From: Burkholderiales bacterium
GTDB lineage: Bacteria; Pseudomonadota; Gammaproteobacteria; Burkholderiales; SG8-41
Direction: 5' to 3'
DNA length: 64,000 bases
Assembly: GCA_035649495.1 (NCBI GenBank)
Contig: DASRJL010000147.1
Span: forward strand, 8,479-72,478
The translations under genes and the position numbers were made by a program. Positions within the stretch are counted from its first letter, which is position 1. Each line of letters starts with the position of its first letter. The notes below the pieces were generated by a model. It had not been told where the DNA came from, made no database searches, and saw nothing but the letters and a program-made list of their open reading frames with translations. Shown here piece after piece: positions 3,123 to 62,592 of this stretch.

Positions 3123-3407
3123 ATGTCCTCCAGTGTGGTGCGGTGCGAGAAGCCGTACCGGTACGACTCGGACGAGCCTGACGAGTTCAGACCGTGCTGC
3201 ATGCCGCAGTGCCGGAGAAGAGAGTCACCGTGTCAGAATCGACTGACTTTGAGTCACGAGTCATAAGTCGTCATCAGGCCACGCATGATTCCCCGGCGAA
3301 AAGCCATGATTTGCCTCTTTTCCGCCACTTTCTCCGCGTAACCTCGTTTTCTATCGCGCAGGCACATTCTTCGAATTCCCAGCTCGCCCTTCCACGTTCA
3401 TCCTTGC

Positions 3408-11635: not shown

Positions 11636-12622
11636 ATGGCGAAACTAGTTGGCGTGTTCCAGGCGGCGCATACCCCGTTCTGCTATCGCAGGCCGGAAGA
11701 CTGGAACCAGGCGCGCAGCGGACGCGCGCTGCGGGCGGACGTGCCGCTCGACGACCTGGAGTCGAATCGCCGCAAGCACGCGCGCGTCCAGGACGGCTTC
11801 GCGGTGCTGCGGCGGAAGCTGGCGGAAGCGGGACCCGATGTGATCGTGGTCTTCGGCGACGACCAGCTGGAGTGCTTCGATTTCAGCAACTATCCTGCTT
11901 TTTCCATCTACGTGGGCGAGGAGTTCGAAGGCACGCTCGCGAGCGAGGACACGCCCATCGGCGGGCTCCCGTCCCAACCGGCGAAGAAGGCGCGGCTCAA
12001 GGGGCACCGGGAACTGGGCGTCGCGCTGCTGACCGGTCTCATGAAGCGGGGAATAGACCCGGCGTTCTGCATGGACATGCCCAAGCCGGAAGAAGGCATC
12101 GGCCACGCCGTCATGCGGCCGGCGCAATCGCTGACGGATCTCAAGACGCCGATCGTGCCGGTCCTGATCAATTGCTACTACGCGCCCCAGCCCACCGCCG
12201 CGCGCTGCTACCAGGTCGGCAGGGCGGTGCGCGAAATCATCGAGGAGCTCCCGGGGAGCCTGCGGATCGCCGTCGTCGGCTCCGGCGGCTTGTGGCATAC
12301 GCCGCGGAAGAAGGGCGCCTGGTTGAACGAGGCCTTCGACGAGGCGCTGCTCGCGCACATGGCGCGGGGCGACATCAAGGCGATGGCCGCCTGCTTCGAT
12401 GAGTACCAGGTTCCGGCGGGCGATGCCAGCCAGGAGATCGGGACTCGCGGAAAGGAAGTCACGGGCATGCCGGGGTTCGGCGGCCCCCAGGGCGGCACGC
12501 GCGAGACGTGCAACTGGATTGCGGCCGCCGGCGTCGTCGAGGGAACCACCGCGACCATCGTGGACCGCGTGCCGATCTACGCTTCACCCATCGACGCGGC
12601 GTTCGCGTACTTCAACCTCTGA
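11636..12622 (+). CDS. class III extradiol ring-cleavage dioxygenase (LigB family)
   Basis: 328 aa. The N-terminus MAKLVGVFQAAHTPF, followed by VIVVFGDDQLECFD...PAFSIYVG, GHAVMRP and VVGSGGLWH, is typical of the LigB / protocatechuate 4,5-dioxygenase beta-subunit fold. Confidence 0.8.
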   Translation: MAKLVGVFQAAHTPFCYRRPEDWNQARSGRALRADVPLDDLESNRRKHARVQDGFAVLRRKLAEAGPDVIVVFGDDQLECFDFSNYPAFSIYVGEEFEGTLASEDTPIGGLPSQPAKKARLKGHRELGVALLTGLMKRGIDPAFCMDMPKPEEGIGHAVMRPAQSLTDLKTPIVPVLINCYYAPQPTAARCYQVGRAVREIIEELPGSLRIAVVGSGGLWHTPRKKGAWLNEAFDEALLAHMARGDIKAMAACFDEYQVPAGDASQEIGTRGKEVTGMPGFGGPQGGTRETCNWIAAAGVVEGTTATIVDRVPIYASPIDAAFAYFNL

Positions 12623-12633
12623 CGAGCCCCGCG

Positions 12634-12688
12634 CTACGAGCCACGAGCTACGGACGACGAAGCAGCAGTCACGATTCACGGGTCACGC
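12634..12688. repeat. tandem heptamer array (8 units)
   Basis: CTACGAG CCACGAG CTACGGA CGACGAA GCAGCA GTCACGA TTCACGG GTCACGC, directly after the LigB stop codon. Confidence 0.85.
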
Positions 12689-13261: not shown

Positions 13262-13363
13262 ACGCGTCTTCCTGCGATTGCGGCTCCCGCTCCGCCGTGA
13301 GCAACGCGGCAGTGGGAGCCTTGTTTTTCCGGTCACGAGTCACCTCCCTGAAAGGATGCCCTC

Positions 13364-13666: not shown

Positions 13667-13776
13667 TCGAAGGCGGAAGGCGGAGGATGAGGGGCGCCTG
13701 TCAGCGAATTCATCGGTCGTGCGTTGATTCCCGATGGTGAGGCGCGCTTCAGCGCGTATCGAAACGGGAGAACGTC

Positions 13777-15056: not shown

Positions 15057-18000
15057 CTAGGAAACCGGGGCGACGAGCTCCGCTTCGATGACCCTGAACA
15101 TATCTTCGAGCCTCTCGGCATCCTTCACGGCACCGCATTCCTTGAACAGCGCCCGCGCCCGGTCTATGTGCTCCTGGCGCGCCGGCGTGCCGGGCTCGTC
15201 GAGGCGGGCGATCTCGCGGTGGGCTATGGCGAGTGCGTAGGGCATGTCGAGACGCGTCGCCCAGTCGAGGCTCTTGACGAAGTAGCGCCGCGCCCGCCGC
15301 GTGCGGCCATCGATGCGCGCGTAGGCGCCGTGCCAGATGTACGACATCGGGCGCGCGGTGGGGTACATGAAGGCAAACATCCTGAATGTCGCTAACGTCG
15401 TCTTCAGCATCCCGCGCTCGGCCTCGGCTCCCTCGGCGCGCCGCATGGCGAACAGGGTGGTCAGCGTTTCGCCGAGTCCATGATAGCCGGCCAGGAGATA
15501 GTAGGAGCAGGTAATCGACTGCTCGATGAAGCGCACCACGCGTTCGGCGGCGAGCCGCGCCTCGCGCACGTCCCCGGCGCGCACGTGCGCCTGCGCCATC
15601 GTCCCGAACGCGAGTATCGCATCGGCGCGCGCGATGGCGTTTGGCCGGTCGCCGTGCTCGGCGAGGAGAGCTTCGAGCAGTCCCCTGGCCTCGGTGTCGC
15701 CGCCCATCGCGAGCGACAGCGCCATGCGTCCCGCGAGCCCCCACAGCTGCACCTGCACGATGCCGCGCCGGCGCCCGACCGCGTAGATTTCCTCGTAACG
15801 CTTCCGCGCCTCGACGAGACGGCCGTGGCGATGACAGCTCACCGCGGCGAGAAACGCGGCCTCGTCCCAGCGTCTGCGGTCGCCGATCGACTCCGCGCGC
15901 GCGATCGATTCGACCATTGCCGCCTCGGCTTCGCGCCAGTGGCCGGCGCCGGCGTGGTACAGGCCGACCAGTTCGTAGATGTACGCCAGCGAAGGCAGGT
16001 GGCCGACCGCCTTGCCCGTTGCGATCGCGAGCCGCTCGTACATGTCGGAGAGCGGGAACAGCAGCATGATCGCCGTCGTTACTATGACGTTCCCGTAGCT
16101 GCGCGCGAGCTCGGGCGAAGCCCCGGCCTCCTCGGCGAGGTTGAGCGCCGTCACGGCGCCGCTCATCGACTGGACCAGGGCATTCTCCATGTAGTAGATC
16201 TGGCACAGCCGCTCGTTCGCCCGCGATGCGTCGAGCAGGAGGCGACTGTGCGGCCCCGGCTCCTTCACGAACCGGCCCGGAAAAAGTCGATGCAGGGTCT
16301 GCACGACCACGGCCTTCATAAGGCGCGTGAAGTGCTGCCACAACGGCCCGGGGGGCGGACGCCCCATGAGCGTCAACGCGCGGTTCAGGTGCTCGCGGCT
16401 CTCGTCCTGCCTGCCGAGCGCGTAGTACGCCTCGCCGAGCTGCTCGTTCCATAGGGCGCGCCGGACCGGGTCGCTCAGGCCGGGGGTTTTCTCGTCGAGC
16501 GCCATCGCCTGGTTGAAGAAGCTGATCGCCTCGTCGTTCGCGTAGCTCGCCACCGCGCGCATGCCGGCCTGCTCGAGGTAACCGATCGCCTTCGCGCTGT
16601 CTTCCGCCTTGGTGTAATGGTGCGCGAGGGTCGGGTACCAGGGCGCGAGATCGGCGGCGTACTCGCTCTCGTACCACACGGCGATCGCGCGGTGCAGCTC
16701 GCGCCGCTGCGCGAACAGCATGAGGTTGTAGGCGACCTGCTGCGTGATGATGTGCTTGAAGATGTAAAGCCGCTCGGGTGCGACGGTCTCGACCTGGGCG
16801 AGATCGACGATCTTGAGGACGTCCAGATGCTCGCCTATGTTCGGCCGCTCGGCCTCGACTGGGTGGACGGAGAGCAGCAGCCGCTCGAGAAAGGTGCGCC
16901 CGACCACGCTCGCGACCTTGAGCGAGAGCTGCTGCTCCGGCGTGAGGCGGTCGATGCGCTCGGAGACGACGCCCTCGACGGTGTCGGGCATCGAGAGCGC
17001 CTGCACGTCGATGCCCGGCGCGATACGGCACTGGCCCTTGTCGATGATGATGTGCCCCGCGTCGCGCAAGGCGTAGGCCATCTCTTCGGTGAAGAAGGGA
17101 TTGCCTCCCGCCTTCTCGCCGATCATGCGGGCGACCGGCTCCGGCAGCGTCTCGATGCCGAGCCGCCGGCAGGCGAGCGCGATCGCTTCCTCGGGCGCGA
17201 GGAGATCGAGCGTTATCTTGACCGCGCCCGGGGTCATGATGATGTAGCCGTACTCGATGGGGACAGGCGGCGGGATGGGCCGCGTCGCGATCACCAGCAG
17301 CAGCGACCTCACGTCGCGCGCGACCAGGCGCGTGAAGGCCCACGAAGCGGAATCCTTCCAGTGCGCGTCCTCGATAATTATGAGTAATGGCGACGCCGTA
17401 TGCCGGAGGATGCCGAGCAGGAGGTCGTGCGTGTTGTCGGCGCGCAATTCGCCTTTCATCTGCGCCGTGATCTCGTTCTCGGGCAGGTCGAGCGGGAAAA
17501 CCACGTTCAGGAGCGGCGCCAGCCTGGAGAGCTCGGGAGCCGGAGCGAGGAGCGACAGCACGTGGTCGCGGCGCGCCTGCGGCTCGGTCACCTGGTCGAG
17601 ACCGAGCAGCGTGCTGAATACGCCGCGCCAGGCATGGTAGGGCGTAGAGCGCTCGATCGAGTCCGCCGCCCCGACTGCCGCGCGCACTCCGGCTGCCCTG
17701 GCGTAGTTCTCGATCTCCTCCAGCAGCCGCGACTTGCCGATCCCGGCCTCACCCTCGATCATCACGATCGCGCCCGCACCGCCTGCCGACAGCACCTGGA
17801 GCTGCGCGGTGAGCGTCGCCAACTCGGCATGGCGACCGACGATGGCATGCTCCGAGCGCCGCCGTGTCACTGTCGCCAGCGCTTGCTCGAGCGGCCGGTA
17901 GACCTGTATCGGTTCCGCCTTGCCCTTGACCCGGATGGGCTCGAGCTTCTCGAAGGCAAACGCTTCAGGCGCGGCGTCGTAGGTAGGCGCATCGCACAGG

Positions 18001-19214
18001 ATCGAATCGGGGGCGGCCTGCATGAGGCGGGCGGCCAGGTTCACCATGTCGCCCATGATCGTGTACTCGCGGCGGCGGGGGCTGCCGACGGAGCCGCAGT
18101 ACGCGCGCCCGGTAGTGACGCCGATCGCGGTTTTCAGGCCGAGCTTCTTCAGGCAGGCGCGGAGCGCGAGCGCCGCCTGCAGGCCGCGCGTCGGGTCGTC
18201 TTCGTGTGCGAGCGGCGGCAGCCCCATCACGCCGATGAACGTCACGCCCTTGTCGTCCACGGAGAGTTTGTTGACGCTGCCCTCGTATTGATAGATCGTG
18301 GTCTGCAGGTCGTGCATCATGCGCTGCGCCTCTTCGAGAGGCGTTGCATGCGTGACGCCCGGGAGGTTCACGAAGAGGACGGTGATGCGCCTCAGCTCGG
18401 CGAACCACCCCGTGTTCCCGGCGCCGAGCCGCGCGCGTATCGCCGCCGGTATGTACGGCAGGAGCTGCTGCGCGGCGGGCGGCGTGAGCGGTGGGACCGA
18501 GAGCGCCACGGGGGGGATCCCGGTCGAAAGCGAGGTCAGGAAGGCGGTCCCATCGTGCGTGCGCTCGCCGGAGCCGGTCTCGCCGATGAGCGCCAGCGCT
18601 TCACGCGAAATGACGACGTCGCCCGGTTTCGCATGATGGCCCGCACGGCCCGCCTGCAGGAACGGCTGGCCCGCGATCAGCAGCTCCCAGCGGCCGAACA
18701 CGCCGCCGACGTGCATGCAGATGGCCGATCCCGCGCCGAGGGCGACCTTGAGCTCGAGCTGGGCGCTCGCGCGGCGGGCGAAATCGCGCAATGCCGACTG
18801 GACCTCGAGCGCGCACTGCGTCGCGCGCCGCGTCGCCACCGCAAGCGTCTCGTCCGCCGTGGCCGGCCACAGGGCGAGCATGGCGTCGCCGGCGAACTTC
18901 ACGATGTCGCCGCCGTGGGCGATGATCACCTCGGCCAGGCAGCCGAAGTAATCGCTGATGACCTTCGACAGCTCCTCCATGCCGACGGCGCCGCGCCCGG
19001 CGAGCTTCTCCGTCAGCGCCGTGAATCCGGAAATATCGGCGAACAGGACGGCCGTCTCGATGTTCTCCGTGATCGGCTCGGTGATCGATCCCGTGCTCGT
19101 CGCCACGCGGCGTATGATGAGCGCGGGCACGAAGCTCGTGCCATGTTCTACAACGGGAGAATCAGCGGGGGTATTCATGTCAGCGCGTGATTGTGCACCG
19201 GCCGTGGCGCTCAT
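15057..19214 (-). CDS. signalling protein: two tandem class III adenylate/guanylate cyclase domains + AAA (P-loop) ATPase + TPR-like repeats
   Basis: Internal start of ORF 15057..19892 (ATG 19214, alternative 19178). CHD1 is AVLFADISGFT...KFAGDAMLALW. CHD2 is TVLFVNLPGVT...GVTTGRAYCGSVG...IMGDMVNLAARL. Walker A is IEGEAGIGKSRL. A long helical repeat region forms the C-terminus. Confidence 0.85.
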   Translation of the reverse strand: MSATAGAQSRADMNTPADSPVVEHGTSFVPALIIRRVATSTGSITEPITENIETAVLFADISGFTALTEKLAGRGAVGMEELSKVISDYFGCLAEVIIAHGGDIVKFAGDAMLALWPATADETLAVATRRATQCALEVQSALRDFARRASAQLELKVALGAGSAICMHVGGVFGRWELLIAGQPFLQAGRAGHHAKPGDVVISREALALIGETGSGERTHDGTAFLTSLSTGIPPVALSVPPLTPPAAQQLLPYIPAAIRARLGAGNTGWFAELRRITVLFVNLPGVTHATPLEEAQRMMHDLQTTIYQYEGSVNKLSVDDKGVTFIGVMGLPPLAHEDDPTRGLQAALALRACLKKLGLKTAIGVTTGRAYCGSVGSPRRREYTIMGDMVNLAARLMQAAPDSILCDAPTYDAAPEAFAFEKLEPIRVKGKAEPIQVYRPLEQALATVTRRRSEHAIVGRHAELATLTAQLQVLSAGGAGAIVMIEGEAGIGKSRLLEEIENYARAAGVRAAVGAADSIERSTPYHAWRGVFSTLLGLDQVTEPQARRDHVLSLLAPAPELSRLAPLLNVVFPLDLPENEITAQMKGELRADNTHDLLLGILRHTASPLLIIIEDAHWKDSASWAFTRLVARDVRSLLLVIATRPIPPPVPIEYGYIIMTPGAVKITLDLLAPEEAIALACRRLGIETLPEPVARMIGEKAGGNPFFTEEMAYALRDAGHIIIDKGQCRIAPGIDVQALSMPDTVEGVVSERIDRLTPEQQLSLKVASVVGRTFLERLLLSVHPVEAERPNIGEHLDVLKIVDLAQVETVAPERLYIFKHIITQQVAYNLMLFAQRRELHRAIAVWYESEYAADLAPWYPTLAHHYTKAEDSAKAIGYLEQAGMRAVASYANDEAISFFNQAMALDEKTPGLSDPVRRALWNEQLGEAYYALGRQDESREHLNRALTLMGRPPPGPLWQHFTRLMKAVVVQTLHRLFPGRFVKEPGPHSRLLLDASRANERLCQIYYMENALVQSMSGAVTALNLAEEAGASPELARSYGNVIVTTAIMLLFPLSDMYERLAIATGKAVGHLPSLAYIYELVGLYHAGAGHWREAEAAMVESIARAESIGDRRRWDEAAFLAAVSCHRHGRLVEARKRYEEIYAVGRRRGIVQVQLWGLAGRMALSLAMGGDTEARGLLEALLAEHGDRPNAIARADAILAFGTMAQAHVRAGDVREARLAAERVVRFIEQSITCSYYLLAGYHGLGETLTTLFAMRRAEGAEAERGMLKTTLATFRMFAFMYPTARPMSYIWHGAYARIDGRTRRARRYFVKSLDWATRLDMPYALAIAHREIARLDEPGTPARQEHIDRARALFKECGAVKDAERLEDMFRVIEAELVAPVS

Positions 19215-26227: not shown

Positions 26228-26367
26228 CCGTCAGGCGTCCGCAACACCCGTCAGGGGTCATGGGTCAGCGGTCAGGCGTGCCAGAATCTGTTAAGGTCAT
26301 GCGCGCCTGACGCTTAACGCTTAACGCCTGACGGGTTCTCGCGCGCATGACCCATGACCCCTGACAG
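26228..26367. repeat. CGTCAGG-word nested inverted repeat between convergent genes
   Basis: Left arm is CCGTCAGGCG..CCGTCAGGGGTCATGGGTCAGCGGTCAGGCG. Right arm is GCGCCTGACG..CGCCTGACGG..CATGACCCATGACCCCTGACAGG. Confidence 0.85.
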
Positions 26368-26379
26368 GTTCTCGTGGCG

Positions 26380-27521: not shown

Positions 27522-28691
27522 ATGAACGATGCCGTAGATCTCGCCAGTCCCAGCGCCGCTGCCACGCAGGAATTTCCACTTGCTCAAGCCACTCCGCGCG
27601 AGCTGGGCTTTCACGAGCCGGCGCTGGCGCGCCTGCGCAAGCTGATCCAGTCGCATATCGCCGAGGGACGCTACCCGGGCGCGCAGATCGCGCTTGCCCG
27701 GCACGGCCGTCTGGCGCTGTTCGAATCATTCGGCAAGGCCGCGATCGCGCCCGAAGCGGCCGCGGCCGCCGATACGCTGTGGCTCCTCTTTTCGAACACC
27801 AAAGTCATCACGGCGACCGGGATCTGGGCGCTAGTCGAGGACGGATTGCTGCGATTCTCCGACCGCGTCGCCGAGCACATCCCCGAATACGCGCGCCATG
27901 GAAAGGGCGACATCACGGTCGCACAGGTCCTGAGCCACCGCGCGGGCTATCCGAGCCAGGTTGTCTCCTCTGCCGCGTGGACCGACCACCAGGAAATGCG
28001 CCGCCAGGTGTGCGAATTCACGCTCGAATGGACGCCTGGCACACGGCTCGCCTATCACGGAAGCGCAGCGCACTGGACCGCCGCTGCACTGATCGAAGCC
28101 GTGGCCAAGGTCGATTACCGGGACTTCCTGCGGCAGCGGATCATGGAGCCGCTGGGCCTGGCGCGCGAGGTCTACGTCGGCCTGCCGGATGCGCAACACG
28201 GCCGCGCCGCCATGATGTACGAGCCGGGGCCCGACGGCAGCCAGCGTCCGCTGGCGGAACAGAACACCGCGCCCCATCGCCGCGCGGGTATCCCGAGCAG
28301 CGGCGGCTATGCGACCGCCCGCGGCATGGCGGCGCTGTACCAGATGATGGTGAACTTCGGCCGCCTGAACGGCACGCGTCTGTTCTCGCGGCGCCTGATC
28401 GAGTTCGTCACTCGCAATCACACCGGCGACATGCTCGATGAAACGATGGGCATGCCCATGCATCGCGGGTTGGGCGTGCACGTGCGCGGCGCCACCGAAA
28501 CGATACGCGGCCTGGGCAGCCTCGCCTCCCCGCGGACTTACGGGCACGGCGGCGTCGGCTCATCGTATTGCTGGGGCGATCCGGATTCCGGCGTGTCGTT
28601 CGCCTACATCACCAACAGCAAAGTGCCCGACCCGTGGCACAGCGTGCGGCTCGATCTGGTAGCGAACATCGTGCATTCGGCGATCGATTAG
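27522..28691 (+). CDS. serine hydrolase, beta-lactamase/esterase (class C-like) family
   Basis: SxxK motif in LFSNTKVITA. 389 aa. YGHGG near the C-terminus. Confidence 0.8.
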   Translation: MNDAVDLASPSAAATQEFPLAQATPRELGFHEPALARLRKLIQSHIAEGRYPGAQIALARHGRLALFESFGKAAIAPEAAAAADTLWLLFSNTKVITATGIWALVEDGLLRFSDRVAEHIPEYARHGKGDITVAQVLSHRAGYPSQVVSSAAWTDHQEMRRQVCEFTLEWTPGTRLAYHGSAAHWTAAALIEAVAKVDYRDFLRQRIMEPLGLAREVYVGLPDAQHGRAAMMYEPGPDGSQRPLAEQNTAPHRRAGIPSSGGYATARGMAALYQMMVNFGRLNGTRLFSRRLIEFVTRNHTGDMLDETMGMPMHRGLGVHVRGATETIRGLGSLASPRTYGHGGVGSSYCWGDPDSGVSFAYITNSKVPDPWHSVRLDLVANIVHSAID

Positions 28692-28800
28692 AAGCAAGCA
28701 CCAAGCACCAAATCCCAAATCACAAACGCGTTTGGAATTTGATGCTTTCGCATTGGTGCTTGTTTGAGACTTGAGGCTTGTAATTTGGAATCTGCTATCT
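28692..28800. repeat. AT-rich CACCAAG/CCAAAT word inverted repeat
   Basis: GAAGCAAGCACCAAGCACCAAATCCCAAATCACAAACGCGTTTGGAATTTGATGC...CATTGGTGCTTG...TAATTTGGAATC. Confidence 0.8.
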
Positions 28801-30055: not shown

Positions 30056-32506
30056 ATGGTTAACATCGAATCGACCCCCCAGATGGCGGCCAAGGTCTAC
30101 GAGACCATGGCGAAGAACCTCAAGGTGGTGCGTCGCCGCCTCGGTAAGCCTTTGACTTTGGCGGATAAAGTCTTATTGGGGCATCTCGACGACCCGGAAA
30201 CCCAGGATCTGGAACCGGGCAAGAGCTACCTCTTCCTCCGGCCCGACCGGGTGGTATTCCAGGACGTGCTGGGGCAGACCGGCCTCTTGCAGTTCATGCA
30301 GACGCGGCGCGACCACGTCGCGGTCCCGACCACCGTACACTGCGACCACCTGATACAGGCGCGCGTCGAAGGCAGCCAGGACTTGCGCGAGTCGCTCGCG
30401 GAGAACACCGAGATCTACGATTTTCTGCGCTCGGCTGCCGCGAAGTATGGCGCGGGCTTCTGGGGACCCGGCGCCGGGATCATCCACCAGGTCGTCCTGG
30501 AGAACTACGCTTTCCCCGGCACGCTCATCATCGGCACGGACTCGCACACTCCCAACGCCGGCGGGCTCGGCGCGTGCTCGGTCGGAGTCGGCGGCGCGGA
30601 CGCCGTGGAGACCATCGCCGGCCTGCCCTGGGAACTCCTGTACCCCAAGCATATCGCCGTCTACCTGACCGGGAAGCTCTCCGGCTGGACGGCCCCCAAG
30701 GACGTGATCCTGTACGTCGCGGGCCAGTTGACCGTATCCGGCGCCACGAATGCGATCGTCGAGTACATCGGTCCCGGCGCGCGCACGATCAGCGCTACGG
30801 GCAAGGCCACCATCACCAACATGGGAGCGGAAATCGGCGCGACCACGTCGATGTTCCCGGCCGACGAGCACATGTCCAAGTACCTGCGCGCGACCGGACG
30901 CGCCGGGCTCGTGGGGCCCATGGAAAAAAACCTGGACCTGCTCCAGCCGGACCCCGAAGTCGAAGCCGATCCGGAGAAATACTACGACCGCGTGGTCAGG
31001 CTCGATCTCTCGACGCTCGAGCCGCACCTCGTGGGGCCGCATTCGCCCGATCGTGCGCGCCCGATATCGAAGCTCGCTGCCGAGGTAAAGGACCCGGCCA
31101 ACAAGTTCATCGATGAAATCTCGAGCACGCTGATCGGCAGCTGCACCAACTCCTCGTACGAGGACATGTCGCGTTCCGCGGACGTCGCGGAGCAGGCGAA
31201 GGCGCGTGGGGTCAAGACGGCGGTGCCGTTCCTCGTCACGCCCGGGTCGGAGCAGGTGCGCGCCACGATAGAGCGCGACGGCCAGATGCAGTCGCTGAAG
31301 GACATCAACGGCACCGTGCTCGCGAACGCCTGCGGTCCGTGCATCGGGCAATGGCGCAGGGCGAAGGAAGTGGCCGAGAAGCCGAATACCATCGTCACCT
31401 CGTACAACCGCAATTTTCCGGCGCGGAACGACGGCCAGGCGACCACGATGAACTTTATCGGGAGCCCCGAGATCGTGACGGCGCTGGCGCTGGCCGGGAG
31501 GCTTTCGTTCAACCCCATGACGGATACGCTGACCGGCGCCGACGGCCAGCCGTTCAAGTTGAACCCGCCGAAAGTCGCGCCCGAAGTGCCCGCGAAGAAT
31601 TTCGACCGCGGCAACGCTAACTACATTGCGCCGCCCAGGGACGGAAGCAAGATCAAGCTCTCCGTCGATCCCAACAGCAAGCGCCTGCAGCTCATGCAGC
31701 CGTGGTCTCCGTGGGACGGGAAGGACTATCTCGACATGCCCGTGCTGTTGAAGACCAAGGGCAAGACCACGACCGACCACATCTCGCCGGCCGGCCCGTG
31801 GCTGAGTCTCCGCGGCCACCTCGACCGGTTCAGCGACAACCTGTGCATGGGCGCCATCAACGCCTACACGGGCGAGGCGGGCAAGGTGAAGAACGTGGTG
31901 ACGGGGACTACCGGCGAAATGGTGTCCAAGGTCGCGCGGGACTACAAGTCCCGCGGCATCAAGTGGGTGATCGTCGGCGACGCCAACTACGGTGAAGGCA
32001 GCAGCCGGGAGCATGCGGCACTCTGCCCGCGCCTGCTGGGCGGTGTCGCCGTCATCGTTCGCAGCTTTGCGCGCATTCACGAGTCAAACCTCAAGAAGCA
32101 GGGACTGCTCGCGCTGACGTTCCAGAGCCCGGCCGATTACGACCGCCTGCGTGAGGAGGACCGCCTGAGCCTGGTCGATCTCAAGAATCTGGCGCCGGGC
32201 AAGCCGGTCGAGTGCATCGTCAAGCACGCCGACGGCACCATGGAGACGCTGAAGCTGAACCACACGTTCAGCGGGCCGCAGCTCGACTGGTTCCGCAAGG
32301 GCTCCGCCTTGAACCTGTTCCATGGCGGCGCCGGAGAAGCCGTGGCGAAGAAGAAGGCTGCGGCGGCAAAGGCGAAGGCTGCTCCGAAGGCGAAACCTGC
32401 CCCGAAGAAAAAGGTCGCGGCGATGAAGAAGCCCGCCAAATCGGCCAAGGCGAGCAGGAAGGTCGCGAAGAAGAAGGGGGCGAAAAAGAAGGCCGCCAAG
32501 AAGTAG
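30056..32506 (+). CDS. aconitate hydratase (mitochondrial-type, ~760-aa core) with a C-terminal Lys/Ala-rich histone-H1-like tail
   Basis: ATG 30056 follows AGGAG. IIHQVVLENYAFPGTLIIGTDSHTPNAGGLG, LIGSCTNSSYEDM and NACGPCIGQW are aconitase Fe-S ligand regions. The last 53 codons are AKKKAAAAKAKAAPKAKPAPKKK... Confidence 0.9.
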   Translation: MVNIESTPQMAAKVYETMAKNLKVVRRRLGKPLTLADKVLLGHLDDPETQDLEPGKSYLFLRPDRVVFQDVLGQTGLLQFMQTRRDHVAVPTTVHCDHLIQARVEGSQDLRESLAENTEIYDFLRSAAAKYGAGFWGPGAGIIHQVVLENYAFPGTLIIGTDSHTPNAGGLGACSVGVGGADAVETIAGLPWELLYPKHIAVYLTGKLSGWTAPKDVILYVAGQLTVSGATNAIVEYIGPGARTISATGKATITNMGAEIGATTSMFPADEHMSKYLRATGRAGLVGPMEKNLDLLQPDPEVEADPEKYYDRVVRLDLSTLEPHLVGPHSPDRARPISKLAAEVKDPANKFIDEISSTLIGSCTNSSYEDMSRSADVAEQAKARGVKTAVPFLVTPGSEQVRATIERDGQMQSLKDINGTVLANACGPCIGQWRRAKEVAEKPNTIVTSYNRNFPARNDGQATTMNFIGSPEIVTALALAGRLSFNPMTDTLTGADGQPFKLNPPKVAPEVPAKNFDRGNANYIAPPRDGSKIKLSVDPNSKRLQLMQPWSPWDGKDYLDMPVLLKTKGKTTTDHISPAGPWLSLRGHLDRFSDNLCMGAINAYTGEAGKVKNVVTGTTGEMVSKVARDYKSRGIKWVIVGDANYGEGSSREHAALCPRLLGGVAVIVRSFARIHESNLKKQGLLALTFQSPADYDRLREEDRLSLVDLKNLAPGKPVECIVKHADGTMETLKLNHTFSGPQLDWFRKGSALNLFHGGAGEAVAKKKAAAAKAKAAPKAKPAPKKKVAAMKKPAKSAKASRKVAKKKGAKKKAAKK

Positions 32507-32510
32507 GTGC

Positions 32511-32540
32511 GTGACCCGTGACCGGTGACCAGTGACCGGT
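32511..32540 (+). repeat. GTGAC-N2 tandem heptamer array (30-mer identical to 34647-34676)
   Basis: GTGACCC GTGACCG GTGACCA GTGACCG GT, 4 nt after the aconitase stop codon. Confidence 0.95.
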
Positions 32541-32573
32541 AAAAAAGGCCCGCAATCGCGGGCCTTTTCGTTT
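32541..32573. terminator. bidirectional intrinsic terminator
   Basis: A6-GGCCCGC-AATC-GCGGGCC-TTTT between convergent genes (aconitase on +, SDR on -). Confidence 0.8.
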
Positions 32574-32598
32574 CAGGACGAATTAACGGAGATAACCC

Positions 32599-33390
32599 CT
32601 ACAGCACTGAACGCACCAATCCCCCGTCCACGAGCATGGTCGTCCCGGTGATGTAGCTCGCTCGTCCCGAGGCGAGGAAAGCCACCAGGTACGCCAGCTC
32701 CTTGGGCTCGCCGACGCGTCCCACCGCAGTCTCGGCCGCCCGCTCCGCGAGCGCCTCTTCCACCGAGATGCCTTTTTCCTTGGCCCGCGACGTGACGTTC
32801 GAGAGCATGCGCTCCGAAAGGATCGAGCCGGGACACACGTTGTTGACCAGAATGCCGTCGCGTCCCACCTCGTCGGCGAGGCTTTTCGCCCATGCCACCA
32901 CCCCCATGCGCGTCGCGCCCGAGAGCGCGAGGTTGGGGATCGGCTGGTAGACGGTGCTCGCGAGGATGTTGATGATGCGCGCGCCGCCCGCCTTCTTGAG
33001 ATGCGGCAGCGCTTCCCGCGCCATGCGCGCGAAGAAGAGCAGCGAGCGCTGCACGGCGGTGGCCCACTGCTCCTCGCTCGCGTTCTGCGCATAGGCAAGG
33101 GGAGGGCCGCCGGAATTGCTGACGAGGACGTCGAGCCGCCCGAATTTGCCGGCCGCGGCCGCGATGAATTCCCGGACCGTTTCGTTCCGGTCGAGGTCGC
33201 CGGCAAATGCCAGCACCTCGACGCCCGTCGCGTCGCGGATCTCCTTCGCTGCCTTCTCGATGTCCGGCTTCGAGCGGCTGCACATCGCCACGTTCGCGCC
33301 TTCGCCGGCCAGCACTTCCGCGCACGCGCGCCCCAGCCCCTTGCTCGCGCCGCCGACGATGGCGGTCTTGCCTTTCAGCATCAAGTCCAT
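32599..33390 (-). CDS. SDR-family oxidoreductase (3-oxoacyl-ACP reductase-like)
   Basis: ATG 33390 follows AAGGA. KTAIVGGASKGLGRACAEVLAGEGANVAM (TGxxxGxG). Confidence 0.85.
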   Translation of the reverse strand: MDLMLKGKTAIVGGASKGLGRACAEVLAGEGANVAMCSRSKPDIEKAAKEIRDATGVEVLAFAGDLDRNETVREFIAAAAGKFGRLDVLVSNSGGPPLAYAQNASEEQWATAVQRSLLFFARMAREALPHLKKAGGARIINILASTVYQPIPNLALSGATRMGVVAWAKSLADEVGRDGILVNNVCPGSILSERMLSNVTSRAKEKGISVEEALAERAAETAVGRVGEPKELAYLVAFLASGRASYITGTTMLVDGGLVRSVL

Positions 33391-33407
33391 GCTTTTCCTT
33401 TCAACAA

Positions 33408-33550
33408 GTGATGTACGCTGGCGCGGTGATGTACGGCTTCGCCAGTGATGTACGCTATCGCAGTGATGTACGGCTTCGCCAGGTGATGTGCCGCCAGCGA
33501 TTCTCATCACCACTTTTCATCACCACTATCTCATCACCATCATTCATCAC
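33408..33550. repeat. GTGATGTACG x5 (18-20 nt period) followed by CATCAC x4 (13-14 nt period)
   Basis: GTGATG at 33408, 33426, 33445, 33463 and 33483. CATCAC at 33505, 33518, 33532 and 33545. The array fills the divergent intergenic region between 33390 (-) and 33571 (+). Confidence 0.9.
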
Positions 33551-33570
33551 GTCTAGGGTAGCATCTACCG

Positions 33571-34650
33571 ATGTTCGACGAACACAAACCCCTCGAAATC
33601 GCGGACCAGGGATGCTTTTTTGCCGGTGGGCGCTACGCGGAGACCGACGACGGCCGCGTCATCCTGGGGCAGATGTACGTGCAGTATCAGGTGCCCCGGA
33701 CGCGCCGGCACCCGCATCCGGTGGTCATGATTCACGGCGGCGGCCAGACCGGCGTCAATTTCCTCTCCACCCCGGACGGGCGCCGCGGCTGGGCGGACTA
33801 CTTCGTGGCAAACGGGTTCACGGTCTACGTCGTCGATCAGCCGGCGCGCGGGCGCTCGGGATTTTTCACCAGGGGCTATGGCGATGCCGCTCGCCGGAAT
33901 GCGGACGCTATTGCGGAACGGTTCACGGCTCCCGAAATCGGCAAGCGCTGGCCGCAGGCCGGGCTGCACACGCAATGGCCGGGAACCGGAGTCGCGGGCG
34001 ATCCCGCGTTCGATCAGTTCTACGCGTCCCAGGTGGAGAGTATGTCCGACATCGCCGCCCTCGAGCGCATGATGCGCGAAGCGGGCGCTGCGCTCCTCGA
34101 CCGCATCGGCCCCGCGATCCTGCTGACGCATTCGCAGAGCGGCCCCTTCGGCTGGACGATCGCCGACGCACGGCCGCAGGCGGTACGGGCGATACTCGCG
34201 ATCGAGCCCAACGGCGCACCCGTGCGCGAGGTCGAGTTCACGGGCCCGCCCGGCTGGTTCGAGGACGGCCTGGTCACCCGACCGTGGGGCATCACCCGCG
34301 GCCCGCTCGCTTTCACTCCAGCGGCCGCGGCGCCGTCCGATCTCAAGTTCGAGAGACAGGCCGAGCCGGACGGTCCGGGCCTCGTCTGCTGCTGGCTGCA
34401 GGCGGGCCCGGCGCGGCAACTCGCGAATCTCCGCGGAATCCCCGTGTTGATCCTGACTTCCGAGGCCTCCTATCACGCGGCGTACGACCACTGCACCTCG
34501 CGGTTCCTGCGGCAGGCGGGGGTCGAGCACGACTTCGTCCGTCTTGCCGACGTCGGGATCCGCGGCAACGGCCACATGATGATGCTCGAGAAGAACAATC
34601 TCGAGATCGCGGCGTTTCTTCAGAAGTGGATCGAGGCGAAACTCCCGTGA
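33571..34650 (+). CDS. alpha/beta-fold hydrolase
   Basis: PVVMIHGGGQTG and LLTHSQSGPFG (nucleophile elbow variant). 359 aa. Confidence 0.75.
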   Translation: MFDEHKPLEIADQGCFFAGGRYAETDDGRVILGQMYVQYQVPRTRRHPHPVVMIHGGGQTGVNFLSTPDGRRGWADYFVANGFTVYVVDQPARGRSGFFTRGYGDAARRNADAIAERFTAPEIGKRWPQAGLHTQWPGTGVAGDPAFDQFYASQVESMSDIAALERMMREAGAALLDRIGPAILLTHSQSGPFGWTIADARPQAVRAILAIEPNGAPVREVEFTGPPGWFEDGLVTRPWGITRGPLAFTPAAAAPSDLKFERQAEPDGPGLVCCWLQAGPARQLANLRGIPVLILTSEASYHAAYDHCTSRFLRQAGVEHDFVRLADVGIRGNGHMMMLEKNNLEIAAFLQKWIEAKLP

Positions 34651-34676
34651 CCCGTGACCGGTGACCAGTGACCGGT
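34647..34676 (+). repeat. GTGAC-N2 tandem heptamer array (30-mer identical to 32511-32540)
   Basis: GTGACCCGTGACCGGTGACCAGTGACCGGT. Its first TGA (34648-34650) is the stop codon of the hydrolase gene. Confidence 0.95.
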
Positions 34677-34680
34677 CGCT

Positions 34681-35019
34681 CTACTCACCATCCGGCAGCG
34701 CCCCGGCCTTCGTCTTGAAGCTCACGAAGCGGGTTCCGTCCTCCAGCGCGATCTGCTCGTGCTCCTGGTCGCTCAAGATCAACGCCACTTCGCCCGGGCC
34801 GATGTCGCGGGTCTCGTCGCCTACCCGCATCCTCAGCCGTCCGGAGATGACGAGCATCATCTGCTCGCTCTTGTGGTGGTGCGGTTTCGCCCCGGTGCCC
34901 TTCGGTTCCGTGTAGTAGCCGATCTCGAGCTCGTCGCCGGCGATGGTCGGACCGTGGGCGGTGGAATGGCCCGGGGCGACTATGGCGCCCGGTATTTCGT
35001 CCAGCTTGAAAAATGGCAT
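34681..35019 (-). CDS. cupin-domain protein
   Basis: GGGAGGA RBS. 112 aa. GAKPHHHKSEQMMLVISGRLRMRVGDE...GPGEVALI is the cupin motif pair. Confidence 0.8.
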   Translation of the reverse strand: MPFFKLDEIPGAIVAPGHSTAHGPTIAGDELEIGYYTEPKGTGAKPHHHKSEQMMLVISGRLRMRVGDETRDIGPGEVALILSDQEHEQIALEDGTRFVSFKTKAGALPDGE

Positions 35020-35049
35020 GGTTCCTCCCTCAGCTCGAAACTTGAAACT

Positions 35050-35838
35050 TCAAACTGCAATTCCGCCAAGGAATTGCAGCATAGCGCGATTGACCGGCCC
35101 GGGCGCCTCGAACTGCACCCAGTGGCCCGCGTGAGGTATGAGGTCCACGCGCACGTCGGACCTGGCCGCGCGCGCGGTGTCGGCACGCGCCCGGACGTCG
35201 GGGTATACCAGCACGTCCCGCTCGCCCCATATCATCTGCACCGGGCACAGAATGCGGGCGAGCGTTGGCGGCATGATGTTGCTGAGGCTGAAGTGCCGCC
35301 CATCGAAGCGCGTGCGGCGGACGTTGGCGAGATGGAGATCGACGGCCTCCTCGGTGATATTGCCAGGATCGGCGATCATGAGGACTGCCAGATTGTGGCG
35401 CAGCACTTTGCGCAAGGAGCCCGGTCCGGACGCTTCGGGAGGGAACTGCCGCAAGTCCAGTGCGACGGGCGATCTGCCGAATCCGCCGGCGCCCAGCAGC
35501 GAGAGTCCGCTGACCCGCGTCCCCAGGCTGGCTGCACACAGGGCAGCGATCACCGCACCGAACGAAAACCCCGCGAGCTTCACCGGTTGCTTGCGGGCGA
35601 TCTCGGCCACGGCCGCCGCAACCAGCGCCACATAGTCGTCGTTGGGGGTGTCTTTCGCCACTACCGGCGAATCGCCGTAGCCGGGCATGTCGAGCAGGTG
35701 CAGCGTGAACCGGCCCGCCAGCGCATCGATGTTGCGCGTCCAGTGGTTCCAGGAACCCATGCCGCCGTGGACCAGGACGAGGGGCTCGCCGGCGCCGGTG
35801 ATGCGCGCAGCGAGGCCCGAGATGGTTGTCTTCTTCAT
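35050..35838 (-). CDS. alpha/beta hydrolase (meta-cleavage-product-hydrolase-like)
   Basis: PLVLVHGGMGSWNHW and KLAGFSFGA (GxSxG). 262 aa. Confidence 0.8.
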   Translation of the reverse strand: MKKTTISGLAARITGAGEPLVLVHGGMGSWNHWTRNIDALAGRFTLHLLDMPGYGDSPVVAKDTPNDDYVALVAAAVAEIARKQPVKLAGFSFGAVIAALCAASLGTRVSGLSLLGAGGFGRSPVALDLRQFPPEASGPGSLRKVLRHNLAVLMIADPGNITEEAVDLHLANVRRTRFDGRHFSLSNIMPPTLARILCPVQMIWGERDVLVYPDVRARADTARAARSDVRVDLIPHAGHWVQFEAPGPVNRAMLQFLGGIAV

Positions 35839-37855: not shown

Positions 37856-38314
37856 GTGACTGGTATAGAGCAAACTGGTGAGCGGTGTGTGACGGGACCG
37901 GTCACGGGTCACGAGTCACGAGTCACGCCCTCCGGATTTTCTCTGTTCCCTCGACACCGTGTCCTGCGCATTGCGGCGGTGATCTGGTTGGTGCTGGCTG
38001 CGGCACTGCTCGTCGTGATGCTGCTGCGGCCCGAGATGCAGGCAGGCGAGCGACGGGCCCTTTCCGTACTGATGCCGCTCTACTTCATGAGTTTGCCGCT
38101 GGGTCATGCCGGGCTGCTGGCGGTCGGCAGGCTGAAGGTGGAGCTTTATTGGAACAACGAGTTCGTGCCCGCGGTTTTTACCGAGGGCATGGTGCTGTGG
38201 ATCCTGCTGATGCTGCTGGGTTACGTGCAATGGTTTCTTCTGCTGCCAATGATCTCCGGGAGGATCCGCCGGCTGGGACACGCGTACTCCGCCTGGAGGG
38301 TCTCGGCAAAGTAG
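37856..38314 (+). CDS. hypothetical membrane protein
   Basis: Three hydrophobic segments (IAAVIWLVLAAALLVVMLL, LSVLMPLYFMSLPLGHAGLLAV, MVLWILLMLLGYVQWFLLLPMI). The start is uncertain because the 5' end overlaps a heptamer array. Confidence 0.45.
   Translation: MTGIEQTGERCVTGPVTGHESRVTPSGFSLFPRHRVLRIAAVIWLVLAAALLVVMLLRPEMQAGERRALSVLMPLYFMSLPLGHAGLLAVGRLKVELYWNNEFVPAVFTEGMVLWILLMLLGYVQWFLLLPMISGRIRRLGHAYSAWRVSAK
37899..37926 (-). repeat. GTGAC-N2 tandem heptamer array (reverse orientation)
   Basis: CGGTCAC GGGTCAC GAGTCAC GAGTCAC. Confidence 0.9.
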
Positions 38315-45276: not shown

Positions 45277-45424
45277 GATCTGGACCTCCTTACCATTGAG
45301 TTGAGCAAGTATAAGCCTGCGCCGGCCACCGGCAAAACGGAATTCCCTATGTCAGGCGGCCCGCTGGAGACGTTACCTGGCAGTCCACATTACGTGCAAA
45401 AGGACCCGGTCAGTTGGGCGGTCC

Positions 45425-45452
45425 CGGTCACCGGTCACTGGTCACTGGTCAC
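45425..45452 (-). repeat. GTGAC-N2 tandem heptamer array
   Basis: The minus strand reads TAA-A-GTGACCA GTGACCA GTGACCG GTGACCG, immediately after the stop of the TctC gene. Confidence 0.9.
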
Positions 45453-45453
45453 T

Positions 45454-46434
45454 TTACTTGGCCATTCCCAGCTCGGTGAGTATCTGCTTCAGCTCCACGT
45501 GCTCCGCATCCAGCTTGCGCCGGGTATCCGCGGGGCCGGAGTAGATGTTTTCCCAGAAATTCTCCTGCAGATCCGCTTTCCAGTCCTCGGTCTGGGCCAG
45601 CTTGCGAAACACGCCGTCCCAGTACGCGACCTGCGCGGGCGTGATGCCTTTCGCGGCCATGATGCCGCGCCAGCCGACCACGGTCACGTCGACGCCGACC
45701 TCCTTCCAGGTGGGCACCTCGGCGAACGGGGCTCCCATGCGGCGCGGACCCGTGATGACCAGGGTGCGCATCTTCCCCTGCCGCAGGTGATCGACCATGT
45801 TGGAGAGGCCGGTGTTGATGGCGCCGACGTGCCCGCCCAGCAGCGCCATGCTGGTCTGGCCGCCGCCGGCGAAGCTCGCGATCTTCACGCGCTTGAAGTC
45901 GACGCCGCCCCGCTTGAGCGCCGCTATCAGCGAGGTGTAGTTGCTGCCGCCGACGCCGGAGACGCCGAACGAGACCGCGTCCGGGCTCTTCACCAGCCGG
46001 TCCAGCATGTCGCGCGCGGACTGTATCGCGGAGCCCGCGGGCACGTTGACGCCGTAGTTATCGGCAAGGAGCATCGCCAGCGGCGTGAAGTCGGTGTAGT
46101 TGTAGGCGGTAAGGCCGGTGAGATGGTTGCTGATTGCCGCGCTGGTCGACAGCAGCAGGACGTGGGGATCGCCCGGCAGGGAGTGGAGCTGGTTCAACGC
46201 GATCGTGCCGTTGCCGCCGGGCCGGTTGACGACGTTTACCGGCACTTCCACGAGCTTGTATTTCTGGAACAGGCGCTGGATATCGCGAGCGGTGCGGTCG
46301 CTGGTTCCGCCGGGCGCGTTGGGCGCGATCAGCGTGAGGGCCCGGTTGGGCTTCCAGCTCTCCTGCGCGAGCGCCGGAGCAGCCGCTATCCCGGCGGCGC
46401 AAAGTACCGGTAACAGGGTCTTCAGCAGCGTCAC
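45454..46434 (-). CDS. Bug/TctC-family periplasmic solute-binding protein
   Basis: GTG start. Signal peptide, then ALTLIAPNAPGGTSDRTARD and VVNRPGGNG. A divergent family member. Confidence 0.8.
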   Translation of the reverse strand: MTLLKTLLPVLCAAGIAAAPALAQESWKPNRALTLIAPNAPGGTSDRTARDIQRLFQKYKLVEVPVNVVNRPGGNGTIALNQLHSLPGDPHVLLLSTSAAISNHLTGLTAYNYTDFTPLAMLLADNYGVNVPAGSAIQSARDMLDRLVKSPDAVSFGVSGVGGSNYTSLIAALKRGGVDFKRVKIASFAGGGQTSMALLGGHVGAINTGLSNMVDHLRQGKMRTLVITGPRRMGAPFAEVPTWKEVGVDVTVVGWRGIMAAKGITPAQVAYWDGVFRKLAQTEDWKADLQENFWENIYSGPADTRRKLDAEHVELKQILTELGMAK

Positions 46435-50241: not shown

Positions 50242-50324
50242 GTGACACGTGACACGTGACTCGTGACCGGCAAGCGAGATCGAGGGGTGCAGTTACGAGT
50301 CACGGGTCACCGGTCACGGGTCAC
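50242..50324. repeat. inverted pair of heptamer arrays (GTGAC-N2 x4 ... GTCAC-N2 x5)
   Basis: GTGACAC GTGACAC GTGACTC GTGACCG, a 22-nt spacer, then GTTACGA GTCACGG GTCACCG GTCACGG GTCAC. Confidence 0.9.
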
Positions 50325-55573: not shown

Positions 55574-55577
55574 TCAG

Positions 55578-55605
55578 GTGACCAGTGACCGGTGACCAGT
55601 GACCA
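55578..55605 (+). repeat. GTGAC-N2 tandem heptamer array
   Basis: GTGACCA GTGACCG GTGACCA GTGACCA, starting 4 nt upstream of the start codon of the minus-strand oxidase gene. Confidence 0.9.
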
Positions 55606-55681
55606 GCATAATACGGGCTGGACCTGTTATTGCGGCGCGCTAGAATAGCCGCCTCGCGGCATACCTGAAACGGAGGAGCAC

Positions 55682-58906: not shown

Positions 58907-58987
58907 GTGACACGTGACAGGTGACACGTGTCTCGAAAATGCCGTATTCCTCCAATCGCAGGTGACGAGTCACGGGTCACGAGTCAC
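58907..58987. repeat. inverted pair of heptamer arrays (GTGAC-N2 x3 ... GTCAC-N2 x3)
   Basis: GTGACAC GTGACAG GTGACAC GTG, a 31-nt spacer, then GTGACGA GTCACGG GTCACGA GTCAC. The architecture matches 50242-50324. Confidence 0.9.
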
Positions 58988-62381: not shown

Positions 62382-62592
62382 GCGCTTGCTCCGGGTCCCG
62401 GGAATCAGAGCGCGATGATAGGCAGCGTGCTATTACAGTTCCGTTACAGCACCGTCAGCCGTCAGGGGGGTCAGGCGTCGATTCAGCGCGCCCGCCGGCC
62501 AGCACGGGTCCTGATGCCGCAGGATTTCCGGCGGGCGGCGTGGCACGCGCTCTTGGTGCGACGCGCGTAGTCGCGACAGCGCCGGCCGGTCT

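Follow-up and report, generated by a model that had tools for sequence, protein, structure and literature searches.

A heptameric GTGACCV repeat family with strict polarity at gene boundaries in an uncultured soil Burkholderiales lineage

Why should one sequence of 30 nucleotides (nt), GTGACCCGTGACCGGTGACCAGTGACCGGT, stand unchanged at two places, 32511-32540 and 34647-34676, in a stretch of DNA from a Burkholderiales bacterium? The stretch (contig DASRJL010000147.1, 64 kb, here called the window) had been annotated from its letters alone, and that original prediction described the 30-mer as one case of pervasive tandem heptamers, GTGAC-N2, lying outside or at the edges of coding sequences. 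It offered translational stops in three frames, a family like the repetitive extragenic palindromic (REP) sequences, hairpin or terminator modules, and slippage as possible explanations. The analysis presented here answers that the GTGAC arrays are ~30-nt modules with the consensus (GTGACCV)x4+GT, and that they add a new family, in an uncultured soil Burkholderiales lineage, to the known heptameric repeats of intergenic DNA, a class that includes the short tandemly repeated repetitive sequences (STRRs) and the repeats of Xanthomonas. The main new point, overlooked in the original prediction, is the strict inward polarity of the GTGAC strand at gene boundaries.

Both the two identical copies and the abundance of the heptamer were confirmed. 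Three consecutive GTGACNN units (GTGACNNGTGACNNGTGAC) gave 16 matches in the window versus 0.00 expected in shuffles, and two units (GTGACNNGTGAC) gave 26 versus 0.18. A lag-7 self-similarity scan, which is blind to the sequence of the unit and in which arrays were counted from three units upwards, found 14 arrays of period 7 in the window, together with 4 of period 5, 1 of period 6 and none of periods 8-15, such that period 7 is the sole enriched tandem period among those of 6 or longer. The GTGAC/GTCAC core is present in 10 of the 14 (the other units are GTCAGGG, ACGCTTA, CAAGCAC and GAAACTT) and each of the 14 is intergenic or reaches just into a stop codon. The scan was extended to a lineage set made up of the window, its 8-kb extension and the loci that carry the 30-mer (168 kb, 87% coding), with genes called by a home-made program based on codon usage and partly checked with Pfam. 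This set contains 62 period-7 arrays, with 10, 4 and 2 of periods 5, 6 and 8, respectively, and none of periods 9-12. The position of the arrays outside or at the edges of genes, as originally claimed, was upheld: 58 of the 62 fall in the 13% of the DNA that is non-coding (p ~1e-46) and only four overlap predicted coding sequence. One of these four, in locus L001 (13953-13985, ~270 nt past the end of the window), is a CCTGACG/GTCAGGC array within a called Fer4/CCG-domain (GlcF-like) gene, in a stop-free orientation.

The unit was defined from a set of 147, taken from the window and from contigs related to it. In this set GTGAC at positions 1-5 is 98-100% fixed and 88% of the units have C at position 6; with the arrays found independently of the 30-mer included, the ranges are 96-100% and 77-88%. 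Position 7 may be C, G or A, and T occurs there in 0 of the 147. Most arrays have four units (27 arrays), against 7 with three and 3 with six; the mode of four units plus GT, ~30 nt, holds for arrays found independently of the 30-mer, the numbers then being 11, 7 and 2. Modules occur singly or as convergent pairs, and all paired GTGAC arrays are convergent.

Of the GTGAC arrays that lie no more than 20 nt from a gene boundary, all 25 are oriented so that the GTGAC strand runs from that boundary into the spacer, including 12 of 12 among those not ascertained by the 30-mer. The statement in the original prediction that orientation relative to the neighbouring genes is not uniform was therefore wrong for these arrays, which obey one rule. 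At stops, 20 of 20 arrays carry GUGAC in the mRNA, 0-16 nt after the stop codon, with several overlapping it; at starts, 5 of 5 lie 4-11 nt before the start of a gene on the other strand, the leader of which carries GGUCAC. Because the GTGAC strand reads from boundary to spacer, an mRNA has GUGACC units after its stop and GGUCAC units before its start. Three of the genes that arrays abut lack a Shine-Dalgarno sequence (a DAO oxidoreductase with its start at 55573, a MobB-like and a TctA-like gene), their true N-termini being located by conserved motifs. The polarity extends to the other heptamer families of the lineage, in which the G-richer strand also reads inward (Fisher p = 0.0075), and where two arrays are neighbours the G-rich arm comes first in 13 cases and the C-rich arm in 1. 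Two intercistronic spacers, L142 234-309 and L147 6331-6426, consist wholly of two unrelated heptamer arrays, in the order stop, G-rich array (GAAGGCG or GTGATGA), GGTCAC array, 5-7 nt, and the start of a TctA-like or MobB-like gene without a Shine-Dalgarno sequence.

The arrays belong to a dispersed, multi-copy family. Proteins encoded in the window have exact matches in soil and rhizosphere metagenomes, and the nearest named homologues of its aconitase come from metagenome-assembled genomes (MAGs) of Burkholderiales and Betaproteobacteria. In Logan contigs of four metagenomes over 32300-34900, the depth at the two 30-mer arrays is 10-20x that of the flanks, and contigs break at both arrays, leaving many non-consensus loose ends with unrelated flanks. 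The exact 30-mer was found in 20 stretches of Joint Genome Institute (JGI) metagenome contigs, which after de-duplication represent 17 distinct flanking contexts, one of them the aconitase site; the 28-mer of the 45425-45452 array was likewise found again, in L148. As an ordered four-unit 30-mer cannot recur by independent local slippage, it has been copied or homogenised between loci. The part of the REP-like proposal that concerned dispersal of a non-coding, multi-copy family was thus well founded. The flanks in the 17 contexts have no terminal inverted repeats, target-site duplication or conserved sequence, and those of 18 copies carry no GTAG/CGTC tag, a weak GC dinucleotide being all that they have in common.

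Six independent assemblies at 99.07-99.95% identity have 0 array differences in 31-284 array bp per comparison, and the metagenome contigs over 32300-34900 have no indels at the arrays. The strain comparison of unit number that the original prediction had proposed thus shows no polymorphism among these six assemblies, and the arrays are not hypermutable contingency loci. They resemble the simple sequence repeats (SSRs) of phase-variable genes in having short tandem units able to slip, and differ from them in their invariant unit number, in the heterogeneity of their units and in lying only rarely in the 5' ends of open reading frames (ORFs) or between -35 and -10 boxes. Over larger distances the arrays turn over. 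In relatives at 82-90% aconitase identity, GTGAC arrays are absent or other heptamers stand in their place, with 0-3 period-7 arrays per 6-22 kb and units such as GGAACAA/CCTTGAA (L151) and nine copies of GGGGTCA (L154). The relative L125 keeps the hairpin of the terminator that follows the aconitase gene and has, in the spacer from stop to hairpin, GAAGACG GAAGGAG CGG and not a GTGAC array, which looks like replacement rather than insertion; its spacer orthologous to that between TctC and OB-fold genes has decayed 7-periodic sequence only. These two sites show turnover at fixed positions.

The convergent pairs are predicted to form strong hairpins. The pair at 50242-50324, between the stop of a TctC gene (50329) and the start of an OB-fold gene (50220), has arms at 50242-50267 (GTGAC on the plus strand) and 50299-50324 (minus strand) and folds at -45.4 kcal/mol (z = -4.0) into a bulged hairpin in the minus-strand transcript, followed by UUCUUU and the ribosome-binding site of the next gene. 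The second pair (58907-58987; arms 58907-58930, plus, and 58961-58987, minus) lies between two TctC genes, 16 nt after the stop of the first (57913-58890), with a hairpin of -39.2 kcal/mol (z = -2.9) in the plus-strand transcript. Both hairpins thus fold within transcripts of flanking TctC genes. Composites of other families also fold: that at 26240-26375 is very stable (-76 to -77 kcal/mol, z = -7 to -8) and that at 28685-28800 has z = -2.4. None of the five single modules of the window folds significantly beyond shuffles once the terminator at 32541-32573 is set aside; the folds of the regions 45415-45460 and 55570-55615 are not better than those of shuffles (z = -0.6), the 37899-37926 array has no significant fold and the 32511 module alone forms a weak 6-bp stem at most. 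The composite at 12622-12688 has no stable fold either. The suggestion of hairpin or terminator modules therefore applies to the inverted pairs and not to the unfolded single modules. A simple terminator and promoter scan was uninformative for hairpins with such long loops, and an Rfam scan of the whole window gave 0 matches at gathering thresholds.

Within the GTGAC pairs the five-base cores pair; the arms are different alleles, and positions 6 and 7 are for that reason mostly mismatched, which led to the rejection of compensatory pairing from arm to arm. Given such arms, and given that some neighbouring arrays are non-complementary, hairpins cannot account for everything. Contigs with arrays occur in four metatranscriptome runs from soil (unstranded Logan contigs, in which DNA carry-over is possible).

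Arrays of GTGACNN x4 are not confined to this lineage. A scan of species-representative genomes, which records presence and is no census, gave at least 119 loci (815 kb); among the matches listed are Acidobacteriota, cyanobacteria, Dialister, Chloroflexota, Verrucomicrobiota and others, and GTGACCA arrays are present in Scytonema contigs. The 119 loci among the matches listed contain 322 arrays of period 7, with 42, 24, 18, 7 and 4 of periods 5, 6, 8, 9 and 10, respectively, and 68 of them have further heptamer arrays without GTGAC. Some of these listed loci have 9-12 arrays per 8 kb, most of which form complementary pairs, each spacer having its own unit. Order was again strongly biased among the matches listed, with neighbouring arrays G-rich-first in 54 cases and C-rich-first in 6; the ratio was 23 to 3 for pairs without a GTGAC arm and 22 to 3 for non-complementary neighbours. 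In L036, a contig of a Thermomicrobiales MAG, a heptamer bloom far denser than that of the window has 12 period-7 arrays in 8 kb, mostly complementary G-rich-first pairs, the units of individual spacers being GCAAGTG, AGCCGGT (twice), GGAAGGC and CAAGTGA.

This architecture has precedents, the class already taking in cyanobacterial STRRs, arrays of the GGGAATC type in Xanthomonas and Nostoc and the TAACTGA arrays of Beggiatoaceae. Xanthomonas and Nostoc have the G-rich heptameric intergenic repeats GGGAATC and GGGGAYT (Rehm et al. 2015, PMC4692102). The Xanthomonas GGGAATC arrays are mostly of four units with heterogeneous positions, include 70-75 convergent pairs, are found in sense up to 50 bp past stops and in antisense up to 50 bp ahead of ORFs, are transcribed, vary between close species and are under-represented in ORFs (PMC4692102). 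The GTGACCV family is alike in its 7-nt unit with fixed and free positions, the predominance of four units, the many convergent pairs and the scarcity within ORFs, as well as in the sense placement after stops (including overlap with the stop), the antisense placement before ORFs and the variability between relatives. It is unlike these repeats in its host, an uncultured soil Burkholderiales lineage, in having no G-tracts, and in the TGA that its G-rich strand has in three frames, GGGAATC being free of stops. The G-quadruplex (G4), favoured for the Xanthomonas/Nostoc family, needs at least four runs of at least three G and was ruled out here, as GTGACCV has no G-run, the longest being GG at the unit junctions. 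An array of units of the GGGAATC type does occur in the lineage, 24 nt from a stop codon, on the minus strand of L001 14942-14964 (CGGGAAT CGGGATT CAGGATT). The STRRs of cyanobacteria, with consensus units CCCCAGT, TTGGTCA and CAACAGT, are similar in that several heptamer families coexist in intergenic DNA and in their inter-cistron hairpins, and differ in phylum and in G+C content, which is much higher in the present lineage. STRR hairpins can form between cistrons (e.g. hupS-hupL), with transcript stability or translational coupling as the proposed role. We know of no description of a polarity rule for STRRs, and a search of one library of papers found none with the GTGACC unit strings.

The reading that we prefer, with a probability of about one half, is that of a slippage-born, copy-dispersed module filtered by selection, the convergent pairs of which act like REP hairpins, a function that we infer. 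Slippage during replication, or duplication, in a register of 7 nt would give rise to the arrays, a process that would be at work on many unrelated units both in this lineage and in others scattered over further phyla, and the most successful unit would have been dispersed or homogenised, in the form of a 30-nt module, through a copying process. Selection would then retain only harmless copies: arrays would be excluded from ORFs, all three frames being closed by the G-rich strand, which, as GUG- and Shine-Dalgarno-like sequence, would also be kept off start codons, and the C-rich strand would never be left naked in a ribosome-free stretch after a stop, where Rho is to be avoided. The convergent pairs would give bulged transcript hairpins of 25-30 bp, which probably serve, for example after TctC genes, as stabilisers or attenuators at 3' ends or between cistrons, in the manner of REP sequences and bacterial interspersed mosaic elements (BIMEs).

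Several points weigh against this reading. Slippage alone, one of the possibilities in the original prediction, agrees with the co-occurrence of period-7 arrays of many unrelated units; it leaves unexplained the identical, heterogeneous 30-mer in 17 contexts, the constant size of four units and the exclusion of T from position 7. No copying enzyme was found by Pfam among the ~56 genes of the window. The filters named above, Rho avoidance and avoidance of spurious initiation, are what we infer from placement. Gene boundaries rest on the home-made caller, and 16 of the extra loci were ascertained via the 30-mer itself. Single GTGAC arrays do not fold, some neighbouring arrays are non-complementary and the arms of GTGAC pairs are mismatched at the spacer positions. 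The RNA evidence consists of contigs that carry no strand information and possibly include DNA. The organism is uncultured, and the functional role put forward for the arrays is putative.

Among the alternatives, positively selected RNA cis-elements survive best, although we consider them unlikely. The arrays would be platforms, GUGACC in 3' untranslated regions and GGUCAC in 5' leaders, for a protein with a footprint of ~7 nt (Csp, S1 or HutP-like), or dedicated processing or stabiliser hairpins, and would exist first of all because of that function. HutP recognises UAG-N4 repeats, which have a period of 7. The strict polarity relative to mRNA features is what such elements would show, as are a core that is conserved while position 7 is free, the constant number of four units, the strong hairpins 3' of binding-protein genes and the arrays that adjoin start codons without a Shine-Dalgarno sequence. 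Comparable proposals exist for STRR arrays and for the TAACTGA direct repeats of Beggiatoaceae, which are intergenic, have 2-6 units, carry stops in three frames on the forward strand, may overlap the upstream stop and adjoin start codons, seemingly replacing the Shine-Dalgarno sequence (MacGregor 2015, PMC4679880). GTGACCV resembles TAACTGA in being an intergenic heptamer array with three-frame stops, overlap with an upstream stop and contact with starts that lack a Shine-Dalgarno sequence. Its start-proximal arrays are, however, opposite in orientation to those of TAACTGA, where the stop-bearing strand is sense immediately before the start, and inverted pairs are almost absent from TAACTGA (one indirect repeat). 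Close relatives have lost or replaced arrays while the neighbouring genes are unchanged, which argues against a selected cis-element, and no candidate protein was identified. A single sequence-specific reader cannot explain all the arrays, because many unrelated heptamer units share their placement.

Somewhat less probable is a set of sites in double-stranded DNA where a protein would bind 7-bp heptads cooperatively, a ribbon-helix-helix (RHH) protein like omega or ParB of pSM19035, with a nucleoid-organising or global regulatory role. The core (G/A)TCAC resembles the omega heptad WATCACW. Arrays of such operator or parS sites consist of at least four contiguous 7-bp sites, which the modal GTGACCV array possesses, and direct and convergent arrangements occur in both. 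Four contiguous heptads are also the minimum functional omega array (PMC9499535), and the 55578 array overlaps a -35-like GTGACC box followed by CATAAT. The omega heptads are, by contrast, found at a few plasmid promoter or centromere sites with a known binder; GTGACCV arrays are chromosomal, probably number in the hundreds and lie mostly after stops or between convergent genes rather than at promoters. Many unrelated units co-occur, a polarity that follows gene boundaries would not be needed at a symmetric nucleoid site, and no RHH gene or other candidate was found among the ~56 window genes.

We regard as equally improbable a mobile element, in which a dedicated transposase-like enzyme, as for REP sequences and their associated tyrosine transposases (RAYTs) or for transposable elements of the miniature inverted-repeat type (MITEs), copies the 30-nt module. 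The identical heterogeneous 30-mer in unrelated contexts and its multi-copy read depth would both be accounted for. Like REP/BIME sequences, the modules are high-copy and extragenic, ~30 nt long, frequent after the first (binding-protein) gene of transport operons and often arranged as inverted pairs that give transcript hairpins and plausibly protect mRNA 3' ends. The single module is, however, a direct tandem array with an internal 7-nt periodicity, which is neither palindromic nor folding, and it lacks the GTAG/CGTC tag, terminal inverted repeats, target-site duplication and conserved flanks. The original prediction had proposed to look for a RAYT/TnpA-REP-type gene elsewhere in the genome; the ~56 genes of the window include, according to Pfam, no RAYT (Y1 transposase), other transposase or RHH gene. 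That arrays of many other units occur alongside points instead to a period-7 process of a general kind.

The translational fail-safe, by which three or more GUGACNN units put UGA in every frame past the natural stop for ribosomes that have read through or shifted frame, is less likely still. Its arithmetic is correct, as originally stated, and the first TGA of the 34647 copy (34648-34650) is indeed the stop of the hydrolase gene. The TGA strand is sense in 20 of 20 stop-proximal arrays, several of which overlap the stop codon, and about half of the other heptamer families found after stops have stops in the sense orientation (manual tally). The doubt already voiced, that a read-through stop does not explain every site, is confirmed at starts, where arrays have the same inward polarity in 5 of 5 cases with the TGA strand antisense. 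Stop-free families (AGTCGAA, GAGACTG, GAGTTNC and GTCAGGG) occupy equivalent positions, and the GGGAATC arrays of Xanthomonas, which are stop-less on either strand, are placed alike (PMC4692102). Since the same geometry is found at starts, in stop-free units and in GGGAATC, three-frame TGA is not the organising principle. One extra stop would suffice, so that four units and convergent partners are unnecessary for a fail-safe, and relatives manage without the arrays. The three-frame stops are probably a by-product and at most a minor fail-safe.

The least probable reading, already disfavoured, is that of purely neutral local microsatellites, each independently born and kept by slippage: over-represented heptanucleotide SSRs are a known mutational signature in many bacteria, explained by polymerase slippage (Mrazek et al. 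2007, as summarised in PMC4679880 and PMC4692102), and turnover between relatives is rapid, but the order of units is identical across many loci, array length has a narrow four-unit mode and not a decaying distribution, unit number is invariant among six strains, position 7 is non-random and polarity is strict. A restriction-modification or decoy role was also rejected, as GTGAC, GTCAC (GTSAC) and GGTNACC are not avoided outside the arrays.

The five single modules of the window illustrate the placements. The one at 32511-32540 (plus strand; allele A) consists of the units GTGACCC, GTGACCG, GTGACCA and GTGACCG followed by GT, begins 4 nt after the aconitase TAG (32504-32506) and immediately precedes a bidirectional hairpin resembling an intrinsic terminator (32541-32573; A-tract, GGCCCGC/GCGGGCC stem, T-tract). 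The second copy of allele A (34647-34676, plus) occupies the entire 30-nt intergenic space between the alpha/beta-hydrolase ORF (33571-34650), which ends on its first TGA, and a convergent cupin gene, ending 4 nt before the stop of the latter (34681). On the minus strand, a four-unit array at 37899-37926 (GTGACTC, GTGACTC, GTGACCC, GTGACCG) lies ~50 nt upstream of the next plus-strand ORF, and another at 45425-45452 (GTGACCA, GTGACCA, GTGACCG, GTGACCG) is in sense orientation 1 nt after the stop of the minus-strand TctC gene 45454-46434. The fifth module, of four units (55578-55605, plus), is situated between divergent genes and ends 4 nt from 55573, where the DAO oxidoreductase gene of the minus strand has its ATG; the mRNA leader of that gene carries GGUCAC units and no Shine-Dalgarno sequence. 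That start is indicated by a Rossmann motif and by a Pfam DAO domain from residue 5; the public gene call starts at 55534, 39 nt short. The third unit (GTGACC) of the same array, which matches the -35 consensus TTGACA at 4 of 6 bases, forms with CATAAT 16 nt downstream a sigma-70-like match (55585-55612) directed toward the SGL gene at 55682.

Of the sites listed in the original prediction, 37899-37926, 45425-45452, 50242-50324, 55578-55605 and 58907-58987 are sound arrays of the family, and 12634-12688, 13671-13697 and 62450-62480 need correction. The first of the latter is part of a degenerate composite (12622-12688) directly after the stop of a LigB-family gene, in which CGAGCYA-type units are followed by GTCACGA, TTCACGG and GTCACGC. 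The second belongs to a distinct family, GAAGGCG, the run of which (13669-13697, plus) lies just 3' of the stop of a YCII gene, and the third (62450-62480) is of the GTCAG type (CCGTCAG CCGTCAG ...) and not GTGAC. A two-unit remnant absent from that list (13332-13343, minus; plus strand GTCACGAGTCAC) precedes the start of the YCII gene (13364) by 20 nt. Also on the minus strand are three units with a TCAC core (1079-1101; GTATCAC, CGGTCAC, GTATCAC), ~30 nt upstream of an ORF start, and decayed units at 3252-3275 (GAGTCAC, GAGTCAT, AAGTCGT). Other heptamer families are represented by a convergent composite between two convergent genes (26250-26366; GTCAGGG-type arm, ACGCTTA core, CATGACC arm), a CAAGCAC/CAAATCC array with an imperfect inverted partner at the stop of a beta-lactamase-family gene (28690-28765) and a GAAACTT-type array between two minus-strand genes (35034-35060).

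The genes of the window are, from Pfam, mostly those of aromatic or acid catabolism, with thirteen TctC (Bug-family) solute-receptor paralogues amid ring-cleavage, hydrolase and CoA-ligase genes (5-60119) and a 1357-residue adenylate-cyclase/AAA/TPR protein (15057-19130). Repeats that are not heptameric occur at two places. The divergent spacer of an SDR gene (minus) and the hydrolase gene (plus), 33400-33555, has four to five GTGATGTAC boxes at 18-19 nt spacing (37-nt period) and then four TCATCACCA boxes at 13 nt, which look like an operator or iteron array. The C-terminal tail of the aconitase (32330-32506) is rich in Lys, Ala and Pro (…AKKKAAAAKAKAAPKAKPAPKKKVAAMKKPAKSAKASRKVAKKKGAKKKAAKK) and is encoded by 15- and 18-nt tandem repeats; its length varies among homologues, and metagenome contigs have alternative joints there.

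Heptameric intergenic repeats were noticed decades ago, as STRRs, and are the commonest long SSR class in bacteria. Arrays of this kind break short-read assemblies and can mislead calls of gene starts, as for the DAO gene. The GTGACCV family, unable to form a G4, reproduces the architecture that G4s explained in Xanthomonas, and the G-rich-arm-first order is a sharp and testable polarity rule. Because a family without G4s shares this architecture, and because the rule spans unrelated units in the phyla examined, the class would seem to need an explanation that is independent of the unit. A tentative and unlikely possibility is an unrecognised, sequence-independent system that would write or select arrays of about four units in a 7-nt register at gene boundaries, with fixed polarity and patchily across phyla, of which this lineage, Xanthomonas, cyanobacteria, Thermomicrobiales, Synergistia, Dialister and Acidobacteria may be examples. 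If this were true, the cause would lie in a transferable determinant, an enzyme or a binding protein, or in a shared property of the transcription and translation machinery, rather than in simple slippage, stop codons or G-quadruplexes.

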